Shown here: positions 11,501 to 52,345 of the stretch, piece after piece
Layout: each line of letters opens with the position of its first letter
Position numbering within the stretch: position 1 is the first letter of the stretch
Source of the DNA: Pseudovirgaria hyperparasitica
Taxonomy: Eukaryota
NCBI GenBank assembly: GCA_010093815.1
Contig: ML996585.1
Direction: 5' to 3' (one strand)
Length of the DNA: 64,000 bases
The notes under the pieces: generated by a model
What the model was told of the DNA's origin: nothing
The model's input: the letters and a program-made list of their open reading frames with translations, nothing else
The model's database searches: none
Program-made: the position numbers and the translations under genes

Positions 11501-12033
11501 TATTCCTAAAGGACATCAATGCTACGAGATCGGGATTTGGCGGGAACCCAGCAGACCAGGACGGGGGGTCAAGCTTCGACAGCGCGACGCTGCGTTGCAC
11601 ATGGGCGCAGACACGCTTTCTGGTACAGATCTGGACGAACAGCGCCTCGACCAAGCCGTTGCTGCAAGCCGCCTCGGGCACGCCAACATCAACATCTTCT
11701 GCGTCCACTCCATCGTCCTCGTCCTCGGCAAACGACTTTGTCACACCCGGCTCCTTTCCCTACCCGGTGACCATCACGCTGGACAGGCACGGCGGCGCCG
11801 CTGCCAAGAAGCTGGTATACTGCTACGGCATGGACGCGTCTGGCAAGATCGAGCCGAAGCGCAGCACCATCACGCTCGAGGATAGGTCCTTTGGCGGGGT
11901 CGCCGTGAATGGCAACAAGGGCCCGTTTACCAACACCACCGTCAGCGTGGGCGATGGTGGGCCTGGGGGCCTTGATGGCGGCAGCGGGGGCTGTGGCTGC
12001 TCGTGGGTAAACTGGGCGGGCGCAGGCACGTGA
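8599..12033 (+). CDS. Large single-pass type II membrane protein (fungal family often auto-annotated 'glycoprotease')
   Basis: Intronless 1144 aa ORF. Disordered S/T/P N-terminus with GWWNYITTPF, a basic stretch plus TM helix, then a Cys-containing luminal domain (WLNLTNYPPIPTG, CTWAQTRFLVQIWT, GSFPYPVTITLDRHGG, GCGCSWVNW). Confidence 0.8.
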   Translation: MSGQLPPAPLRKDTIYLQRRNERDQSREPTHQQSNNEGTEVAFAMEKNMTYQNVSHTRSSSTQSNSGLLDLTSSHTQDDTHPYSEDRVLTRKPSRIFKYKNNAIQGSKRTLRASQKRRQAGITVDTGHSRHKGMTPKELRYGTAAEKHAGLRIFASPRSAMDSPVLGSEGWWRSRSKKRASRAARGTRNRTTSNTSDRGVIPGLDALNAQSATEHLSPSKLQSLDISPADRPIFIGMSVAPEALSEVESDIEARTRKRSDSGDSPFTPTIIITPAVQRSQFSPDQHPRPASSVYSRFTSAARTPYTVTTSHPPVPALPDFAKTQTNNNVAAATTKYFNFEKGDKWPRRIRDSNMTDFEEDADDSANVRRNRVMSGETVFEEDDSPVRRDLMVRNSGITIDTNVPTPRRSRGWWNYITTPFDASHPESLWPRTPADDKSVGTPKVSEEKPQVPALGLQTRIDIQREAPLISAFSASTVTTMASPWGRGDAEKTPVSPIGLSLSPSHTTYAGPGLSIAEQLSMAPSPPKSAAASVMNTTPPELHQPSPSVDDSPPKDVVARSSAWPFGQTSTTYTTSYDSPSLQQIPVMSMTTPGPELDAMEARTSEERDPPPMVGAHVSNGHNKTRESKTSESSRSRSVGTALTSPYHSPATYGPRDTVFPGSKTDSSHTQRMQHSNHTSYHSGGSRSMKGDALKVYTEKDFLPPPQAVKKQKSDKPKRQCNLFKKRSDKPVDKKKRKKRMCIICGLCGGALIAVILIVVLVLVLTKKHKPDDTPIQSQWLNLTNYPPIPTGISTIAGPTLAHEETGCVIPATQWSCSLPKEEHDSVAPNRSDQPNFRLIIRYKNDTATKTRRQDDLFSPNPSPPSAEDQAFLGNTTDKNVEPFAGEDTPFFISFITPSGTPSISKRQSDDGDVVPNIEDIIPPPATVSGGLAAPANLLPLPVAQPLHLYNRGTVDEHYGFYTYFDRSIFLKDINATRSGFGGNPADQDGGSSFDSATLRCTWAQTRFLVQIWTNSASTKPLLQAASGTPTSTSSASTPSSSSSANDFVTPGSFPYPVTITLDRHGGAAAKKLVYCYGMDASGKIEPKRSTITLEDRSFGGVAVNGNKGPFTNTTVSVGDGGPGGLDGGSGGCGCSWVNWAGAGT

Positions 12034-13249
12034 TGAGTGAGACTTCATGTGTGTTGAGGGGGTGGGTGAAGAAGCAAATACTACTATTATCCTCTTTGTA
12101 TACATATTTCTGTTTGTGGGGTGGCTTGGTGGAATCTTTTCTGTTGCATTGCGAAGGGGCGTGGGCATGGCATGATATGGTGTGGCATGCGTAGATAGCT
12201 TAGTTACTTGGGTACGTATTAATAGTCTGCGAGACAGATGTGTGTATACAGTGGCTAGTCATTTTCTGCTTGGGCCCGTGATGCTGCTGCGAGTGGAAAT
12301 GGATGGCTCTGAAAGTCTGACATGTACGTGTCTCTACAGCTCTCATTCGTGTTGGCCAAGACATCCTGTCTTGTTCTTGTCCCTTGACGAAGGCCTGAGG
12401 ACTTTATTGTCCGCTGGGGTCTTGTCCGCTGGGTCTTGTCCACTCTGCTCCGTAGTCAATGTATTATGCTATTTTACAGATATATACATACATATACATA
12501 TACAAGCCTGAACTAAACCTAATCCCACACCAACGCCATCACCGCAAAAGCATAAGATAGATAGTCACTCGTCTAAATCTACCTCTTGACCTTCAGTCCG
12601 TCATTAGTGCTTTTATATCTTAAGTAAGTAATCTTTGACGTACCCATATATGTCCGCTACGTACCCAGCACACAATCTACCCTACTAGCTAGTCCACTCA
12701 TTCACTGACCCACTCAAACACACGCTCTCTCTCCTTCACTTATATACTTGATATTGGCGTTGACTAGTTCATGGACTATCTGGCTCGTTGATGCTTGATC
12801 CCTGTGTTGGGGTCTCTTTCCTTTCTTTCTTTCTTTCTTTATTTCTTTCTTGCTCTCCTTCCTTCCTTGCTTTCTTTCTTTCCTTACTTCTCGCTGAGAA
12901 CAAGAACATGCACCGGAACTGTCGATGCGACGATTCGGCAAATGGGACGAGACCGCGCATGGATCCACAAGGACACAGGCGCTATGCGCTTGCTCGCTCG
13001 CTCGCTCGTTCGCCCGTGCTGGGCTGGGCTATGTTTGAGCATGTCCCAGGACCGCAGTGCGTATCATGCATGCGTGTGTTTGGGGGGTTGGGGTTGTGCG
13101 TTGTGTTGTCGACATGTATTACCATTGTGCATTATCATTATATAGTGCTGCTGATCCACGACACTGAAACTGACGCTACTGATTGGATAACTACCATCAT
13201 ACAACAATGCCAACCATCACCATCACTACTAATCCACACAAACACGCAT

Positions 13250-13375
13250 CTGCTCAAAATTCATGAAAGCGTCGATTATAGTTTCCAAACACTTGGAACA
13301 CGCAGTGCCACATCCTTTCTATCTTCCATTGTAGAAGCAAGGGTTATACTGGTCTTCTACTCTTAGATAGAGAAG
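13250..13375 (-). ncRNA. Candidate structured ncRNA, unit A (unidentified)
   Basis: Lies downstream of TATAAATA (13406-13399) and CAACCCGGCAC (13452-13442). Has two hairpins and an Sm-site-like GAATTTTGAG at 13262-13253. Boundaries are approximate. Confidence 0.35.
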
Positions 13376-13398
13376 GGGAGATAGGAGAGGGGGATGGG

Positions 13399-13452
13399 TA
13401 TTTATAGGGGTTGGTTGAAGGGCCGGGGTTAGTAGGGGTGTGTGCCGGGTTG
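13399..13452 (-). promoter_or_regulatory. CAACCCGGCAC motif plus TATA box (unit A promoter)
   Basis: Plus strand gtgccgggttg at 13442-13452 and tatttata at 13399-13406. The same architecture recurs twice nearby. Confidence 0.5.
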
Positions 13453-13823
13453 GCCTGGGCATGTAGCGGGTCAGTCTAGATATTGCGTGATTCAACTTGA
13501 CTAAACTAAGTAGTTAACTGACAACTGACTGAATCATTCACAGGACGAATGGCGTGTTTATGCTAGATAAGATGTATATAAATAGATAGATTTGTGAGTC
13601 CTTAAGTTTTCGGGTAGAGTGTAACTACATACGTGTTATAGGGTTACTACGACTAGTTCTACTACTGCTACGAACGAGAACGACTCTGATCATGCTGCTG
13701 TCTATGCTATTGATGGTAATGCACTTTATCATCATCACCACACACCACACACCACACACCAACCCCCAAACATACAAACAAACAACAGCCTCCCCACACC
13801 ATGCCATCTCAACGATACACACA

Positions 13824-13985
13824 CCCATGGGCCATGGATTTTCTACTCTGAGAATGAGTAGCGCCGGGCCACTACAATAATGCTCATGTCTCTTCTTATT
13901 CTGGGAACATGCTTGAACTGTGCCATATAGTTCCTTATAACCAACCCGTGCGAAACGCATTTGCACTGTGGGTTTTGGGGTTGGG
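13824..13985 (-). ncRNA. Candidate structured ncRNA, unit B (possibly H/ACA-like)
   Basis: Lies downstream of TATAAATA (14018-14011) and two CAACCCGRCAC motifs. Contains a series of hairpins with ANANNA boxes at 13902-13897 and 13844-13839. Confidence 0.4.
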
Positions 13986-14010
13986 AATGGGGGGAGGGAA
14001 TGGGGGTTGG

Positions 14011-14428
14011 TATTTATAGGTGGTATGTGTCGGGTTGGAGGAGGGGAGGGGAGGGTAGGGTAGGGTAAGTGGGTTGGTTGTTAATATGTGCCGGGTTGGT
14101 CTGGGTGGTCTAGTCGTTCTACTTAGTGTAAATGTAGGGTAGTTCGCGTGACTTGAGTTTGACTGGGTGACTTACTTATTCACTGAACGCCCAACGAAGA
14201 TGTGTGGTAGCCTGACTGGCTGGCTAGCTAGCTGGGTACGTCTTAACACGTACGTGCTACTAGACATACATGTTAACAATAGGTGGGTTAATACGTATCC
14301 TGTAATTCTTACACAAGCCTGTCATACTCTTCTCCTATCATACCCTTCTCATATCGAGCACGTACACGTCAACCCGACGCGTCAACCCGGCACTAATTAG
14401 TAAGTCAGCGTATATACATCTATATAAA
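14011..14428. promoter_or_regulatory. Divergent promoters of units B and C
   Basis: Minus strand: motifs 14088-14098 and 14027-14037 with TATA 14011-14018. Plus strand: motifs 14370-14380 and 14383-14393 with TATA 14421-14428. Confidence 0.5.
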
Positions 14429-14440
14429 CCCCCCTCCTCT

Positions 14441-14620
14441 CTCCCTCCTCCGTCCCTCCCAACCAACCCCCTCAACCCCACACGCACCGCAACAGGTCTT
14501 AGTTTATGCTGCGGTCGCCGCGGCGGTGGAACTATATGGATTCAAGGTGTGCGTTGTGGGGCTCGGTTTGAGGGGAAAGAGGAAGGGGAAATTATGGACA
14601 GGGACGGAGGAAAAAGGGAG
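14441..14620 (+). ncRNA. Candidate long-hairpin ncRNA, unit C (unidentified)
   Basis: Lies downstream of two CAACCCGRCRC motifs and TATATAAA (14421-14428). Nested inverted repeats close a roughly 180 nt foldback. Confidence 0.4.
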
Positions 14621-15016
14621 GTGATGGGGGATGAAAAGGCAAAGCAAATGATGTGAGAGGTTTTGGAGGGGGGAGAGTGAGGGTTGTGGGGTGTTGGGTG
14701 TTGGTGGTGATAAGTGGTATTTGGTCTTGATGATGATGATGACTATGAGCGATGACGATAGTGAACAGTAAACAGCATCTGCAAGAGCGCAGCTCACACA
14801 TCTCACCCTCCCATACCCTCCCCAACAGAGCAGTATTCGCAATCCCACGCACCAAGGCCACATCTACGCGCCACCAAGCCACCACGATCCACAAACTCAG
14901 GTCTTGAAAACGCTATTTACCGCGGATGTGTGCGTGTACAACCTACGAGGTAGATATATCAGAGATTATATACATGCGTAGCAGTCATTCGATTCCTATG
15001 TTCCAACCAAGGCTAT

Positions 15017-17694
15017 CTACCTCCCCCTCGAATTATCCCACATCAAATCAAACCCACTACCACTTCCAGGTCCAGACCTAGCCCCAGAGCTAGCCCCAGC
15101 CCCAAACGACACTCTCTCCCGCTCCGGCTCGTCGTCCATCTCCGGCTCCGGCGCTACGACTTGCAAGTCGGCTCCGTCGTCGGATTCTGTGTCGTAGTCT
15201 TCTGGGTCGGACGCGGGTGTGGGGTTTGGAGAGCCTGCTGCGGGTGGAGAACGGGGTGTTGGTGTTGAAGTTAAGATAGGGTGGTTTGAGTTGTTGTGGG
15301 ATGATGAGGAGCCGGGGCGTTCTAGCTCAGGGGAGAGGAGGGCTTTTTGTTCTTTGGGTTGGAATACTGATGGGTGGGGGTGTGTTGGTAGGGGGCGTGT
15401 GAGAGGTGCTTTGGGTCGTTGGGGGAGGGAAGGTGTTGGTTCGATGTCTGTGTCGAGGAGGGATGAGAGGAGGTCGCTTGGTTTTGACGAGCTTGTTGAA
15501 TGATGTGGCTGAGGACTGGTAGACATCAGGCCTTGCCCCCCTGCTCCTGACGGGCGCTGCCACTCCGGCGTGGTGTTCTCGTCGACGTCGATATCGAGCA
15601 ACGGCTTTGTGCTGTCCACCATCACGATACCATGTCCGCTGTCCTGCGCCTTGACCATCGTCTCGACGTCGACCTTTTTTCTTTCCGCCATTCCCTGCTT
15701 GCCCTTCTGTTCTTGCTTCCGCATTCTCTGCTCTTCAATCTCCCTCTCAACCACATCCCTATTCACATCCTCCCACCCAATTCTCAGCAGTACCTGTCCA
15801 ACAAGATCCTTATAGCTCGTGTGCCCGTCCACCGCACCGCCCAGATCCACATTCTCCACACCCTCCACGCCCCTCACCTTCTGCAGCCCGGCAACACCCC
15901 ATTGCAGTGCCCCAGCACGATACACCAGCCCAAGAATCCAATCATCGCCACTATACGCATTCACAACCCTCCCACACACCACCGCCCTCACCTTCCGCCA
16001 CTGCCCTTCGTCCGCGGGCACCGGCGCACCCATAAACACCACGCTCTCCACCAGCCCGAACGCGCCACACTCGGCCAGCCTCAGCAGCGCAAACCACAAC
16101 ACTCGCGCACCCAGACTGTAGCCCACGAGACTGACCGGGCGCTCGCCCTGGACACGGTCCATGAGTGCCTGGGCAAGCACGGCGCCCGCCTTCTCGCTGC
16201 GACTCTTGGCCACGGCCCACGGCGAGTCGAGCATGTTTGCCGTACGGATCAGGCCGATGGGCATCAGGCCCGCGGCGATGCTGGAGAGTAGGGTTGCGCG
16301 CAGGACTTCCCAGGTCAGGGTGTCGACGGCAAATGATTGGATGAGTGTGGCGAGGTTGGTGCCTAGGCGGAGCAGGGCGTCCGTCTCATACTGGAGGGCG
16401 AACGGTTCGGTGGTGTGTGAGTCGAGACAGTTCCAGGGCTGGGTGATGTCGGCAGCAGAGGTGAGGAAGCCGGATATGGCGATTGTGAGGCGGAGGTGGT
16501 GGGTGCGTTTTGCTTGGATGATTGCAGAGTCGTTGGGATGGCTTGCTGGTTCAGGGGATTGATCATGCCCTGGAGCTTGTCAATAAGAAAATCACGACGC
16601 TGGAGTGGACAAGTACCATGTATTGGCACAAACTGGAATTCTTCAACATCCTTGGCGTACTTCTCCACGATGCCACCCGTCATCTTCCCTCCATAGGCAC
16701 CAAACAACCCCCCTATCAGGAAAAAATTGGTGGCTAGAGGTCCCAGTAGAGTAGCCAGAGCACCGAGTCCCAGGCTCCCCATAACACCGCCGATAGCACC
16801 AGCAAGTATAGGAGCCGCAAGACCGCCAGTGACTCCAATAAGTACAGCTCCACCGACTGTCGCCAGACCAACTTTCCATTTCCGCGACAAAACACCGTCA
16901 TCGGACTGCTTTTGTTTCGCTTCCTCGGCAGACATCTGTGAGGCAGCTGAATCCAGTAGACCGCGTGCTACTGTCGCTTCACGCTCAGACAGGACACAAT
17001 CAGACAACCGGAAGCTTTTCTGCAAGTACTGCAGTAAAATCCGCGAGTAGGCATGATAGTGCTCCAGACTTAGCACTAGCAGTAACATGCAATGTAGAAC
17101 AAGAACTCGCTGCGGCTCCTCAAGCTTAGTGATGTTCGTAGGTATCGAGCGGACGCGAAAAGTGTACTCTAGCTCGCTATCTGCCGGCTCGTCAGCAGCA
17201 GCATCCTCTCCCTGAGCCCAGGCGTAGAACCTCGCTTCTCTACGCTTCGTAGCTGCAGCGTCTGCTTCAGCAGATGCGTTTCGGCGAGCAATCCGCACTT
17301 CCTCAGATCGAACCGACAGGACTTCGCCAACTCGCTTCAGCACCTTCATACGCCACCCGTCAAAATCGGCAAGTGCCTCTTTCTGGAAACGCTGCATCTC
17401 CGGTGTCGATAATTCGGCTTCTCTGCGACGCCGGTTCTGCTCAATCTTCGCTCTTTCGTCGGTCTTCCGGTCGTCGACGTCGAGCAGAGAGTCTGCACCT
17501 GAGGAAGCACGTGACAGTGGAGCTGAGACATCGAAATTGGCCAGAAGGTTTCGACGCATGTTGTCGGCGGCGAGACAGACCAGCAGAGCGAGATCGACGC
17601 GTTGTGCTTTCGTGTTTAGGATAGTGGTCAGCGACATGTCGTCCTCTTTCTGCGAGGAGGCGCCGCGGCCTGCGTTGCCCCAGCCGGAGAACAT
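15017..17694 (-). CDS. DUF726 / TMCO4-family membrane protein (alpha/beta hydrolase-like)
   Basis: Intron 16570-16616 (GTACTT...CAG) joins the two ORFs. Motifs GLATVGGAVLIGVTGGLAAP, LTIAISGFL, RPVSLVGYSLGARV and VVNAYSGDDWILG. Confidence 0.9.
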
Positions 17695-18144: not shown

Positions 18145-19211
18145 CTAGACAATGAGCCCATTTTCGGGTTCGCTGTACTTGGTGGATAGGTCGACCGAAT
18201 CCACCTTGTTACCGATCTTTACCTTGACAGAGTTGAAATGGACGTTCATGCTACGGAGACTGGACATGAGATCTGTTACGTTGCTAGCTTCGTCAAAGTT
18301 CGGTCCACATATGGGTTGCAGTGCCCAAGCCAGACTGACGTGAAAGCAGTGCGTGCGGTCAACAACTTCAACAAGGCTGTCGCTGCGACTACTACTGCCA
18401 TGATGCTGCTTTTTGGTTTTGACAGAATGGTCGTGCAGCTCTGCCTCTTTATCATCGTATAGCTGATCCAAGTCCAAGGACGCTGCAGCTCGATTACTCG
18501 CGTCCAAGAGACGGTTAAGCTCGTCGCTGTCTGGTCTATCGATGCCAGCGACTAGAAAGTAACGCGTACGCGAATGATTGGGTACCCACCTCAGTGAGGT
18601 GAACTTGATATGGAAAGGTCGCACACCACTTTGCTTGAGACTCACGACAGTCTTCGTGTAGAAGCTATCCTTCTGCGCCGTCGTCAGGGTTAGGGAACGA
18701 GAGAGGGAGATATGTAGCGGAAGGGACATCTGAATATCGGAAGTAAGCAGACTCGTAATGCGTGGACGTATTGGTGTATCTCCCGACGGGCGCCGAGGCG
18801 AATCTCCGGCCGTCTTGCGAGCAAAGTCCACGAGACTATTGAGAACTGTGGACTCGGCAGAGTTCGGATGCCCTCGGAGTCATAGTTAGTCATTACAGGC
18901 ACTGCTGTATACCATAAGCAGCTATACGCGGTACGCAACTTACATTCCAGATAGACATGGGAGGGCCAATTTCCTTGTCTGTGCGGCACGGCCCTGATGC
19001 GGCCGCCATGCAAGGCTGGATCGTCTTCTGTAGTGGTCCTCGCGTTATACGAGTACAGGTCGTGAAATGAGTCTGGAAGTGGTGGCAGATCGGATGATGT
19101 GGAGTTGTCGTGTTTTCGCTTCAAGGCGTTGTTGGTGTTGGCTTTGCGTGGCAGCGGCTGGGCGTCTTGGAGGTCATCGTCGTCCGAGTCGGAATAGTCG
19201 ACGAGGCCCAT
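18145..19211 (-). CDS. USB1: U6 snRNA phosphodiesterase Usb1/Mpn1
   Basis: MGLVDYSDSD start, [23 protein letters not shown] and two HxS motifs (LHISLS, FHVSLAW). Intron 18873-18943. Confidence 0.9.
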
Positions 19212-19840
19212 TACATGTTCTTCTTCTTCTTCCTCTTTTCCTCGTGCTCCGGATTCGGGATGACAAGGCTGACGGAGGTGGATTTGCGTAGACGTGTACC
19301 TGACGAGGAAAGGGAAAAGAGATGACGTTAATCCCGGGCGATTTAGAGGGATTCGATCTGCAGACCCTTTTCTTATGGGACTACTATTGTGTAGCGGCGG
19401 GCTGGGCTGGCTGGACTGGGCTGGAATACTGTAAGCGGGCGGGCTGGGGGCGCTGATTGGCGTCTAATTGGCGTCTTTTTGGGGAGGGACCCGCCCTTTT
19501 CGGGGGATGGACCCGCCGATTTGGAGGGAATGACCCTGGCGGCGGGCTGTTGGGCATGACGTAGCGCGGATTGGCCCATGCAGTGTATGTACCTGCCACG
19601 CGTCATGGCCCGTCAGGTCGTGGCTTCCAAATCAACACGAGGCTGCCCGCATCCGCATCTTAATAATATCTGCGGCCTCGTGCTGCACCCCCGGTTCTGC
19701 ATTTGACCTTGTCCGTCCTATTTACTGTACTCCTCTGCTTCTCACTTCCACCTCTCGCTCTCTGTACAGCTGCAAAAGCCTCCTCATTTGTGTTTCATTG
19801 TCGTCTGACACTGTCCTGATTACATTATACTACCACTAGA

Positions 19841-21532: not shown

Positions 21533-21764
21533 ATCCATTCATCCATCCGTCCATTCATCCATCCGTCCATTCATCCATCCGTCCATTCATCCATCCGTCC
21601 ATTCATCCATCCGTCCATTCATCCATNNNNNNNNNNNNNNNNNNNNNNNNNNNNNNNNNNNNNNNNNNNNNTCCATTCATCCATCCGTCCATTCATCCAT
21701 CCGTCCATTCATCCATCCGTCCATTCATCCATCCGTCCATTCATCCATCCGTCCATTCATCCAT
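21533..21764. repeat. 16-bp tandem repeat (CATCCATCCGTCCATT)n spanning an assembly gap
   Basis: Perfect units on both sides of 45 Ns at 21627-21671, so the true length is unknown. Confidence 0.95.
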
Positions 21765-40704: not shown

Positions 40705-40743
<39 letters not shown>

Positions 40744-40988
40744 CGCGCAAACATTCAGAGGGCTTTTGAGGTTTCTTGAGCTTTTTGAAGTTGGGGGTGG
40801 CAGGGAGTTGGATGGGGAGTTGGATTGGGGGGTCAGAGGAGGGGGGAAGGGGGGTATTCAGGGTTTTTTTCTATTTCTTTTTTATCATGAGGTTGGTGTT
40901 TTTTTTTTGGGTTTTTTTTTTCTTTTTTTTTCTTTTTTTTTTCTTCTCAAATGGGGTGAGTGTGAGGTATGAGAGGTATGAGAGGTAT

Positions 40989-46660: not shown

Positions 46661-49600
46661 TTAGAATTCCCATGTTTCGTCGACAGATTTGACCGCCCAG
46701 TCGAACTTCTCACGGAGGGTTTTCGAAAAGAAACGTTCGATCGGTACGTTGAATTTCTTGGAGAAGACGACAGTCAAGCGTGGATCAATGTAGTTCTAGC
46801 GTCTCGTTAGCAGATCTACCAATTTAAGGTTTCTCAAATACTCACGATCTTCGATGTTCCAAGAGCAACCTCCTTGTTGCCTTCTTTGTCCTCGTACTGG
46901 ATCTTCATGGTCCGGATGCGCTGTTCAAGTTTCTCGATGTTGGCCTCAATCTTTTCAATCGTTGGTCCCTTGCCTTCGGCCTCGACCTTCCCTGTTTTGT
47001 TCTCCTTCTTGAATTGCTTGGCTAGGTCGTCTGCGTCCTTGAGACGCTCATCAAGCTCCTTGTCTTTCATTTCCTTACCACCTTCAGCCTTCAGCTTCTC
47101 ATTTTCCTTCTCGAATTTCTTGGTAATCTTGGTCCGCTGTTCGTCAACAAGGAAAGCTTGATGTTGCAGGACCCATTCGTCGTCAAGGTCTTTATCGCGC
47201 TGAAAGAAATCGGCGCCTCGCTTCTTTTTCTGTTTTGAATCCAGATCTAGCATCTGCTGTCGGAGACGCCATTGCTGATATCGCAAACCGTTGATTTTTT
47301 CTTGCATCTTCTCCATCTGACCCGCGTGACTCGCAGCGACTGTACGCTTGTGGTTACAAAGAATGGCAACCCTGCGATTGGCATCATTGTAGTCTTTGAC
47401 TTTCTCCGGGACAGTCCCCACTGACTTCATATCTTGCAACAGACTTGACATGGTCCAAGACGCATTATAGGTACGGAAGACCTTCGCTGTCAATCCAGGC
47501 ATGTAGTTGCTCAAGTGCTTGTTGAGCGCTGAGGTGGTCAGTCTGTCGAATATCTCATCGCCATCAGTCTTAGGAGCCTTCTTGAAAAGCTTCAAATTCT
47601 TGAAGACTTGTGGATCGACTTCAACCTCATCGTAGAATCGGATAGAATCTTTACCAAGGAAATCGAAGATGACAATGTTTGGAGGCTTGAGAGTAACATG
47701 CTCGTACTTCAACGAACAACATCCCACCGTGTCTGCTTCATCTTCGCCCTTTTCATTGCCCGCACGAAGCGCAAACTTATCGATGAGATAAACGGCTGTC
47801 GCGCGCTGTCGATCGGCCATGAGGTCAGCTTTCAGGTCCTTGGTGTAGTCCTTGCGAATCCTCGCGATATGCTTCTTGAGCTCACGAGCCTTCTCAAATT
47901 TCTTGAAGTCGCTTTGACCCTTGATGTCTGAATTGGCGGCAAGCATGACATACTTGTAAGCACCATTGATGTTTTCTTGCCACATGGCAAGCCAGGTTCC
48001 AGTGTTGTCATGTTTCACCTCTTTCCATTCATGGCCTTCTGGTGGGGGTGGCACCTTTGCCTCTTTACCGATGTTGATTGTGATCTGCTCTGGCAGGACT
48101 CTTTTCTTGACCCGGCCGGTCTTGGGATGTTCTCCCCGACCACGGAAGAGCGAAGGAGGTTCAACACGGAAGTTCCCGACCTTTTGCTTTCGCCCATCCC
48201 ACATGCAGTACTGATACGGAGCTTCTGCCTTATCCTTGACTTCTTTGATGGCCTTCTTCTCATCCTTGGACAAGTTCTTCTTCCTAGTACGCTCAGAGTC
48301 GAACCACTCGAAGATGGGCTTGAAGTCGCACTTCGAAAATTCTTTGATTTTCACAGGCTTGCCATCCCTATCTTTGGCGCCTCCTGATTCTTTGATGATC
48401 TCTTGGAAATCTTCAAAGAAGTTTTTGTTAAAGGTCGGGTTCTCGACATTGACGGTCGAGTTGAGCATAGATCCGTAGAATCCAGCAACTTCTTCAGCCT
48501 GAGGGGCCAGTGTGACGGGAACACCATCATAGAGCAGCTTTACATGCTTTGGGAGCCGTTCATACTCTGGAGGGAAGAGCACACCGTTATGTTCGAGAGT
48601 GGTCCATTTCGTAGTGCCATCTCCTTTGGCCGTATCTTCCCACCAGCGATATTCTTCCTCTTCCTCCTCGCCTGCTTCTTCTTGTGGCGACTCCTCTTTG
48701 ACAACTTTGCCCCTTTTTTTCGCCGGTGTCGAGCTTTCATTTTTCACCTTAGATTTCGCCTTCGCTGCTGTCGTCTTCAAAGGTTTATCATCATCAGGTT
48801 CTTTCTTCACGCCATTTGACATCCTTGGTTTCTTTGCATAAGGTGCAACTTTTGATTTCTTGGCCAAGGGAACATCGCTGTCACTGTCAGCGGCTTTGGA
48901 CTGACGTTTTGGCTTCCCATTAGATTTGTTTTTCGCGTTAATAGCATTTGCTGTCCTTTCGGCCTTCTTTTCAATCTTCTGCTTCTGAACGGCAAGCTTC
49001 CTCTCTATGGGTACATCTGAGTCCTCTGATTCACCTATCTGACTGGCGCGTATTCTTGGTGGTTTCCTGATACCCCCGATCAAGGGCTCATCGTCAGAGT
49101 CGGATCCCATAGTAGATTTTTCAGGTATTGCAGTCTTCCGCCGTTTTGACTTCATCATCGTCAGTAATTATGAGCTCATGAATGACGATTGTGAACGAAC
49201 CAAAGGTTTACTGTCTTCCTCGTCTGAGCTAGACGCGTCTTTGTAGTTCTTCCCATTGGTGATGCTACTCCGTGCCTTGCGTTTCCCATTGGTAGTACCG
49301 TTTGCCTCGGTAGTGTCCACATTCATTGGCTCTACTGGGCCCATTCTGACCGAGATGCCCGCCGGCTGTCCATTCGAAGGGTTCTGTCTGTCCATGGCAC
49401 GATCAACACTCTTTGGAATATAAGTGCTTGACTTGACTGAAAGGATCTATGATCAGCAAAATCGGATGAGGTTGGACAAGTAGAGCATGCCAGGATGTGG
49501 AGGATACATTGGGGAAATGCTGGTCGCGGAGCAGTCGACTTTTGAGCGCGTGTCCGTGTGATCCGATGAATGAGAGCCAAGACAAACAACGACAATTGAC

Positions 49601-51388: not shown

Positions 51389-52345
51389 TCTCACCCGTCT
51401 GAGGCATTTCCTATGTCAACCGATTTAGAGGTTGGGCCCCTAGCATATGCTTCGCTAGTGTACGTATGTAGAATAGGTTAAACCTGAAGTCTGTTCAAAT
51501 ATTGCTACACTCCGAAAGTGCTAGTGTCTACGGTGGCCAGTGGACATGAAAACTTAGCGTAGCACAGTTGATTATGAAGGCAGGGTAAGCGTTGACCGAT
51601 TGCCGCTTTGATAAATTTACATATTACATAGTACCTAAGTGCTCATTTCACGCAACGTTCCGCACACATTCCAAATTCTATCGACTTCTCTATCTCTATA
51701 GAAGAGCCTCTACATTTTAATCTATATAGACTTTTAGCATGGAACTATATAGTGATTTTGATATGGTTCTAGAGTTCTAGAATCCTTACCAATCTAGCTT
51801 GGAGGCTCTCGAGCCAGAAGAAAGAGACATTGTAAGAATTCTTATCGGTCAACTCTGTTGGAACTTCATTTCCTCTAAGAAGCCCCCTCTAGACCTCAAA
51901 ACTAAATCATAGAATTAGGCTTATATACTTGAATATTTACCATATGTCTTTCTACACGATATATATCGAAGTCTATGATTCACGGCTCTTCAACATATTG
52001 CGCATGCCTAGCGCCGCAGAGTACAGCTATTCTACATAAAATTGCTCTACAGATGTAGAGCAGAAATGAAGACTATCTCAAGAGGTCCTTTCGTTGGTTA
52101 AATGCTTTAATACCTCAGCGCTATGCTCGTAAAATCTTTCGCAACAACAATGTACTCAAGCCATCTCTGTTCGAATCATGCAAAGGCAGAATGAACTTTT
52201 TCTTCAATACTACGCAAATAAATGGATCCTCTGAGTCAATTATCTTGTATATAATGGAGTCACGACCTCCATGATTCCAGGTCGACGAATATCAAGAAGT
52301 CCATCGCCTAATTACCAAAACAATATATATACACCAACCTCTACT

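Follow-up and report, generated by a model that had tools for sequence, protein, structure and literature searches.

Three putative co-regulated small transcription units in an intergenic gap of the fungus Pseudovirgaria hyperparasitica

What occupies a 3-kb stretch that holds no annotated gene in a gene-dense part of a fungal genome? This question is raised by a region of contig ML996585.1 of Pseudovirgaria hyperparasitica (GenBank assembly GCA_010093815.1), which we analysed within a 64,000-base stretch of DNA, referred to here as the window. The gap is bounded by a plus-strand open reading frame (ORF) that ends at 12033 and a minus-strand DUF726 ORF that ends at 15017. These ends agree with an earlier reading of the sequence (hereafter the original prediction), which had placed between two convergent protein genes a family of structured small RNAs with promoters resembling those of small nuclear RNA (snRNA) genes. 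Three units, called A, B and C, can be recognized in the gap by a common promoter design. Units A and B are oriented leftwards and unit C rightwards, head-to-head with unit B, a layout that points outward toward both convergent genes.

The promoter-like arrangement of the units begins with the 11-mer CAACCCGRCRC. Exact matches to this motif occur five times in the window, all of them within a 950-bp stretch of the gap (13442-14393) and all at the positions originally assigned to them (Table 1), where only 0.08 matches are expected by chance; five or more copies were found in none of 100 shuffles. The copies vary solely at the two purine positions, and permitting one mismatch adds just three sites, at 14473(+) in the leader of unit C, 25749(-) and 34872(+). 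Furthermore, the observation that each copy points toward a TATA box holds throughout: a TATAWAWR sequence lies 8-69 nucleotides (nt) downstream on the same strand for 5/5 copies and upstream for 0/5, compared with a background in which 1.6-2.2% of window positions are followed by such a box within 100 nt.

Each TATA box is followed by the C-rich leader that had been described. Over the first 80 nt past the box, the fraction of C is 0.34 (A), 0.40 (B) and 0.54 (C), values that rank near the top for TATAWAWR sites across the window, with two unrelated sites at 0.35-0.36. The tails are G/T-rich, with (TGA)-type repeats as originally noted, and have a GC skew of +0.7 to +0.9 in unit orientation, thereby flipping from the C-rich leaders. 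Leaders and tails consist largely of tandem repeats with periods of 3-16 nt. The combination of an oriented 11-mer, a TATA box and a pyrimidine-rich leader in three units is far beyond chance, and this promoter-like anatomy is therefore non-random. In contrast, a TATAWA box was found within 400 nt of the first in-frame ATG for 0/10 neighbouring genes, whose start sites are rough, with introns left out of the gene models. This difference suggests that the promoter design is special to the gap.

The units resemble one another unevenly along their lengths. Likeness is 81-95% among the promoter blocks, and units A and B do not differ in their TATA context. Relative to dinucleotide shuffles, which do not model tandem-repeat slippage, units A and B have 22 collinear 8-mers in common (mean of 3.6 in shuffles), with a chain of five in 0/300, and units B and C have 35 (mean of 4.2), with a chain of six in 0/300. 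The sharing of 8-mers between A and C is weaker, with p = 0.01 for their number and 0.057 for the chain. Outside the promoter blocks, the transcribed part of unit A resembles B and C no better than chance (p = 0.17 and 0.11), and likeness of the regions upstream of the motifs is not significant for A versus B or A versus C (p = 0.34 and 0.33). Unit A, as judged from these alignments, is thus in the set through its promoter alone, and the proposed three-unit family stands for the promoters of A, B and C but not for the transcribed part of A. The high likeness of the promoter blocks, set beside a body of unit A at chance level, argues for promoters under selection.

Units B and C have more in common. 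The exact 12-mer GGAACTATATGG, which was said to be shared by both and to be followed shortly by TTCAAG, was indeed found in the window only at 13923-13934(-) and 14528-14539(+), with TTCAAG after 5 nt in B and after 1 nt in C. Their tails also align significantly (0/200 shuffles). Unit A carries GGAAACTATA as predicted, in a single occurrence at 13277-13286(-) where 0.03 are expected.

A believable coding frame is absent from the gap, a result that comes from ORF-based checks, with spliced models made of very short exons lying outside their scope. None of ten gap ORFs gave a Pfam match above the cut-off, and none of ten ORFs read from M to stop is present in a collection of 15 billion proteins that includes the annotation of this species. 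The four longest gap ORFs have codon-usage scores of -0.06 to -0.11, compared with +0.05 to +0.35 for real genes in frame and -0.23 for a real gene read out of frame. A 151-amino-acid frame in unit B has no relatives among 1.84 billion representatives. A search of the gap for pheromone-type CaaX ORFs matched solely a 12-amino-acid frame in a GT repeat, which is not convincing.

A common promoter design without a believable coding frame suggests that the units probably make small non-coding transcripts. We assign a probability of roughly 0.4 to the reading that the gap comprises three co-regulated, TATA-dependent RNA polymerase II (Pol II) units that produce short non-coding transcripts. In the mechanism that we propose, each unit would be driven by a canonical TATA box together with one or two oriented activator sites of the form CAACCCGRCAC. 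The start of transcription would lie in the pyrimidine-rich tract, about 30 nt past the TATA box, and its end in the G/T-rich tract, with a body of about 100-150 nt in between. The resulting non-coding RNAs would measure roughly 250-350 nt. Units B and C would be diverged inverted paralogues that keep one 12-nt box, and unit A a third, more diverged copy. In this mechanism, the occurrence of transcription, the strand used, the position of the ends, the identity of the bound factor and a role for the RNA itself, as opposed to its synthesis, are inferred.

The original prediction had called the 11-mer an snRNA-like upstream element, a description that does not fit its placement. Core snRNA elements keep a fixed distance, and no such fixed spacing to the TATA box was found: the proximal copy lies at 8, 27 or 35 nt, and the copy number is one or two. 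This variability is what an upstream activating or nucleosome-excluding site would show, and it speaks against CAACCCGRCAC as a core element of snRNA type held at a fixed position. Plant snRNA promoters combine an upstream sequence element with a TATA box, and those of fission yeast have an upstream element near -55 and a TATA box. The gap units are like these in having a dedicated upstream element and a TATA box ahead of short non-coding units. They differ in their variable spacing and copy number, in lacking a 3' box or a match to an snRNA family, and in having an Sm-type site only in unit A.

A closer parallel in spacing is provided by the small nucleolar RNA (snoRNA) genes and other short Pol II units of budding yeast, in which an oriented Reb1, Tbf1, Rap1 or Abf1 site likewise lies at a variable distance upstream of a TATA box. 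These units are also short and ORF-free, and both sets have a G/U-rich region with GUA and UCUUG-like words as a possible place of termination. To our knowledge, the budding-yeast-type termination pathway is not known to work alike in this class of fungi. Unlike the yeast units, those in the gap have a long C-rich 5' part and lack the box C/D or H/ACA design of snoRNAs. Stress-type promoters of fungal messenger RNAs (mRNAs) and long non-coding RNAs offer a further comparison, with the same combination of a TATA box, a CT- or C-rich tract and multiple upstream sites. CCCCT words occur near the gap units, TTAGTAA is present in unit C and TGACTAA upstream of unit A, and we take the latter two words to be AP-1-like. 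In contrast to stress-type promoters, the gap units have no conserved ORF downstream, and three copies lie together between convergent genes.

Which factor might recognize the 11-mer? The yeast Reb1 core is TTACCCG with GC as its preferred 3' flank, and GTTACCCGGC is the Reb1 site with the longest half-life in Table 1 of PMC12305957. The core of our motif, ACCCGGC, is identical to the core of GTTACCCGGC. Compared over nine bases, CAACCCGGC and TTACCCGGC (PMC12305957) agree at seven; both mismatches fall in the yeast core, and the preference of the orthologue in this fungus may differ. By analogy with the strong Reb1 site, a Reb1-family Myb-type factor is the leading candidate. The portion of PMC4138321 available on snoRNA and ribosomal-protein promoters in Ascomycota names the Homol-D and TBF1 motifs, and not CAACCCGRCRC. 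Among the matches listed, those from a literature search for an 8-mer had no bearing on the units and were for the most part primer or oligonucleotide sequences; none from a search on snRNA promoters in filamentous fungi was relevant; and none of the papers naming P. hyperparasitica concerned its RNAs by title or abstract.

The promoter pattern was also sought in metagenomes. A strict pattern, in which the motif and TATA box are followed by GGAACTATA, gave 0 matches. A loose pattern, in which the motif is followed by CTATAWAWACC, gave 14 loci, compared with about 14 estimated by chance. All 14 loci lack the C-rich tract, the core and a second copy of the motif; several duplicate one another, and most look bacterial.

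Several observations weigh against the interpretation of the gap as three small non-coding units, or against parts of it. For each unit, the other strand too has TATA-like boxes and C/A-rich tracts (13139, 13575 and about 14967), which makes the choice of transcribed strand ambiguous. Slippage and not homology may account for part of the likeness between B and C, for instance in TGATGATGAT and the GT repeats, and may contribute to the resemblance of leaders and tails between units, the significant B-C tail alignment included. The case for a Reb1-family factor is weakened by the two bases that depart from the yeast core (CA for TT), which sit in the conserved core, and by the distribution of sites: no other promoter in the window has the 11-mer, though a general regulatory factor site predicts copies there, and the three occurrences of TTACCCG in the window are not at evident promoters. 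Finally, the bodies of 130-180 nt that had been described as structured show no excess folding stability over shuffles. On the proposed strand, z-scores are -0.32 (A), -0.44 (B) and +0.34 (C) for whole units and -1.22, +0.59 and +0.34, respectively, for 148-nt bodies, and it is the opposite strand of unit A that folds best (z = -2.38). A long hairpin joining C-rich leader to G-rich tail was rejected as a candidate structure, with arm pairs that are 75-77% complementary and mutually incompatible, and null z-scores.

Among other explanations, the one that survives best is a decaying local duplication, in which a promoter-bearing segment was copied three times, once in inverted orientation, and is now drifting without function while slippage-prone repeats mimic leaders and tails. 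The short-period tandem repeats that make up leaders and tails fit this account, as does the motif pair of unit C, itself a 13-nt tandem duplication. Bodies that lack excess structure or a coding signal would be expected as well, and no copy elsewhere in the window hints at a wider regulon. However, neutral decay predicts even erosion, yet the 11-mer is kept in five copies with changes at two purine positions only, its orientation to the TATA box is kept in all five, and units A and B retain an identical TATA context, whereas in its transcribed part A resembles B and C no more than chance predicts. We consider a functionless duplication unlikely.

Alternatively, the promoters may be real and serve longer antisense or intergenic transcripts. 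Units A and B would read into the left gene from its 3' end and unit C likewise into DUF726, and either transcription as such or the antisense RNA would tune this convergent pair, with no small RNA as product. The outward layout of the units suits this proposal, and so does the poor conservation of bodies between units. Moreover, no defined terminator, snRNA-type 3' box or T run was found after the bodies; a bacterial-type promoter and terminator scan is not meaningful for a fungus. Against it, a transcript from unit B would cross the promoter of unit A 500 nt downstream, a G/T-rich tract follows each body at a similar distance, and the exact 12-mer kept in the bodies of B and C is unexplained by transcription alone. 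Long transcripts of this kind seem to us less probable again than a drifting duplication.

Could the units belong to a known class of small RNA, such as H/ACA or C/D snoRNAs or a divergent snRNA, that Rfam misses because the lineage is far from its seeds? Residues 180-640 of topoisomerase I, encoded at 46837-49167(-), are 100% identical to a protein named for P. hyperparasitica, and the next match in the protein search is only 83% identical, which indicates that P. hyperparasitica (Dothideomycetes, Acrospermales) is an isolated lineage. Independently transcribed snoRNA genes of yeast have TATA boxes and general-factor sites, a design that the gap units match. In addition, unit A as examined by eye has a first hairpin with an internal loop of the pocket type, then AAAGGA, an ANANNA-type word, and its AAUUUUGA fits the Sm-site pattern RAU(3-6)GR.

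The searches for known classes nevertheless came back empty, in keeping with the original statement that no U1, U2, U4, U5, U6, transfer RNA (tRNA) or other known-RNA signature is present. Across the 64-kb window, 0 Rfam families reach the gathering score and ARAGORN finds 0 tRNA genes. No spliceosomal snRNA family is matched in the gap at E values up to 10; the in-gap Rfam matches are solely weak ones of C/D type (15-17 bits versus cut-offs of 39-54, E = 0.68-9.9) in two TGATGA-rich tails. A scan of both strands of 12100-15000 for box C (RUGAUGA) and box D (CUGA) placed 40-200 nt apart with a terminal stem gave 0 candidates. Inspection by eye, with no dedicated program, showed no ACA after the second hairpin of unit A and no two-hairpin H/ACA layout in B or C, and both of these units lack an Sm-type site having the usual A. 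A 60-nt C-rich 5' stretch is unlike any of these classes. The units do not fit RNA polymerase III genes either, which have a tRNA fold or internal A and B boxes and a T-run terminator; runs of four T residues occur only in units A and C. A telomerase RNA template of 1.5 telomere repeats was not seen on reading the gap by eye, the closest sequence being CTAACCCC in the unit A promoter. Membership in a known class is improbable.

We hold the same low opinion, one step further down, of genes for small proteins or peptides, perhaps interrupted by introns, that escape ORF-based checks. A TATA box and a pyrimidine leader are also the design of highly expressed fungal mRNAs, and a short ORF begins soon after each leader, of 17 (A), 111 (B) and 21 (C) amino acids. 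As originally noted, these peptides show no kinship with one another. Also inconsistent with conserved peptides is the reading of the 12-mer in different frames in B and C, along with the missing Pfam matches, the negative codon scores, the lack of any exact or remote relative and the absence of a convincing CaaX ORF. The least probable explanation, that the units are mobile-element relics such as solo long terminal repeats (LTRs) or foldback-type repeats with their own promoter, draws on the enhancer, TATA box and length of a few hundred bases that are typical of LTRs and on the large imperfect inverted repeat formed by B and C, but neither the 11-mer nor the 12-mer recurs in the remaining 62 kb, the 23 large window ORFs scanned (of 47 listed) gave no reverse-transcriptase or integrase domain, and divergence along the units is very uneven, unlike that of LTRs of one family. 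Repeat-induced point mutation is also disfavoured by the many CpA sites that are still intact.

Thus, as regards the small-RNA family with snRNA-like promoters that was first proposed, its promoter design, the lack of a coding frame and the lack of a known family are upheld, and the terms 'structured' and 'snRNA-like' are not. A more specific form of the small non-coding unit reading seems doubtful on the sequence features at hand: non-coding Pol II transcripts, each about 250-350 nt long, that form a family specific to this lineage and correspond to no described family, with a pyrimidine-rich 5' part, the GGAACTATATGG..TTCAAG box serving as a protein- or RNA-binding site, a G/U-rich 3' part and a dedicated CAACCCGRCAC-binding activator that would turn on all three units jointly.

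Table 1. Coordinates of promoter elements, leaders and putative transcribed parts of units A, B and C in the window
Feature	Position	Strand	Remarks
Unit A 11-mer CAACCCGGCAC	13442..13452	-	35 nt upstream of TATA box
Unit A TATA box TATAAATA within CCTATAAATACC	13399..13406	-	12-mer CCTATAAATACC same as in unit B
Unit A C/T-rich leader	13365..13398	-	in part a 15-nt tandem repeat
Unit A putative transcribed body and G/T-rich tail	13190..13364	-	two hairpins, GGAAACTATA, AAUUUUGA
Unit B distal 11-mer CAACCCGGCAC	14088..14098	-	69 nt upstream of TATA box
Unit B (ACCCT)5 tandem repeat	14042..14067	-	between both motif copies
Unit B proximal 11-mer CAACCCGACAC	14027..14037	-	8 nt upstream of TATA box
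Unit B TATA box TATAAATA within CCTATAAATACC	14011..14018	-
Unit B C-rich leader	13965..14010	-	13-nt tandem repeat x2.6
Unit B conserved box GGAACTATATGG, 5 nt, TTCAAG	13912..13934	-
Unit B remaining putative body and G/T-rich tail	13700..13911	-	(TGTGGTG)n, then TGATGATGAT
Unit C two 11-mer copies	14370..14393	+	14370-14380 and 14383-14393; tandem 13-nt duplication; 40 and 27 nt upstream of TATA box
Unit C TATA box TATATAAA	14421..14428	+
Unit C C-rich leader, C fraction 0.54	14429..14490	+	11-nt tandem repeat
Unit C conserved box GGAACTATATGG, 1 nt, TTCAAG	14528..14546	+
Unit C tail, G-rich then G/T-rich	14547..14760	+	(TGA)5 at end

Other sequence features were noted within the gap. The tandem repeat between the motif copies of unit B reads (AGGGT)5 on the plus strand and is G-quadruplex-prone there; it is reminiscent of ACCCTACCCT, the Homol-E word of fission yeast. 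An imperfect palindrome (TTAACAYGTAYGT...ACRTACRTGTTAA) that is rich in ACGT cores lies at about 14243-14280, halfway between units B and C, which face away from each other there. Words of the type TATATA[CA]AT occur four times on the plus strand of the gap (12481, 13575, 14411 and 14967), and the one at 13575(+), between units A and B, is a full TATATAAATA that is not followed by a C-rich tract. A fourth promoter-like block, at 12741-12910(+), faces unit A and comprises a TATA-like word, (TCTT)16 at 12815-12882 and an ATG at 12908. The ORF of 152 amino acids after this ATG has a negative codon score and is absent from the protein collection.

The gap is surrounded by a gene-dense housekeeping stretch that includes DUF726, HVSL/USB1-like, RRN3, helicase, Top1 and ATP synthase gamma genes, among others. 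The HVSL/USB1-family gene (18148-19463(-)) adjoins DUF726 and is split into two ORFs by an intron; we take this family to be that of the U6 snRNA 3' end phosphodiesterase. The sole ambiguous run of the window consists of 45 N at 21627-21671. Another gene-poor stretch contains a long (TA)n microsatellite at 40706-40745, with GAGT and CAAGA-type repeats on its flanks. At 52324(+), a TATATATA box precedes an ATG by about 20 nt, and the frame that follows opens with a hydrophobic, signal-peptide-like stretch; it is possibly a small secreted protein gene.

Either three small non-coding units or a drifting duplication would explain why a 3-kb stretch without an annotated gene exists in this gene-dense housekeeping region. 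If the units are a mere drifting duplication, the arrangement has no wider meaning. For this class of fungi, in which work on non-coding RNAs and promoter grammar has hardly begun, real transcripts would mean a small co-regulated set of non-coding genes in the gap together with a defined cis-element; the 11-mer would then be a handle for finding the remaining regulon and its factor.

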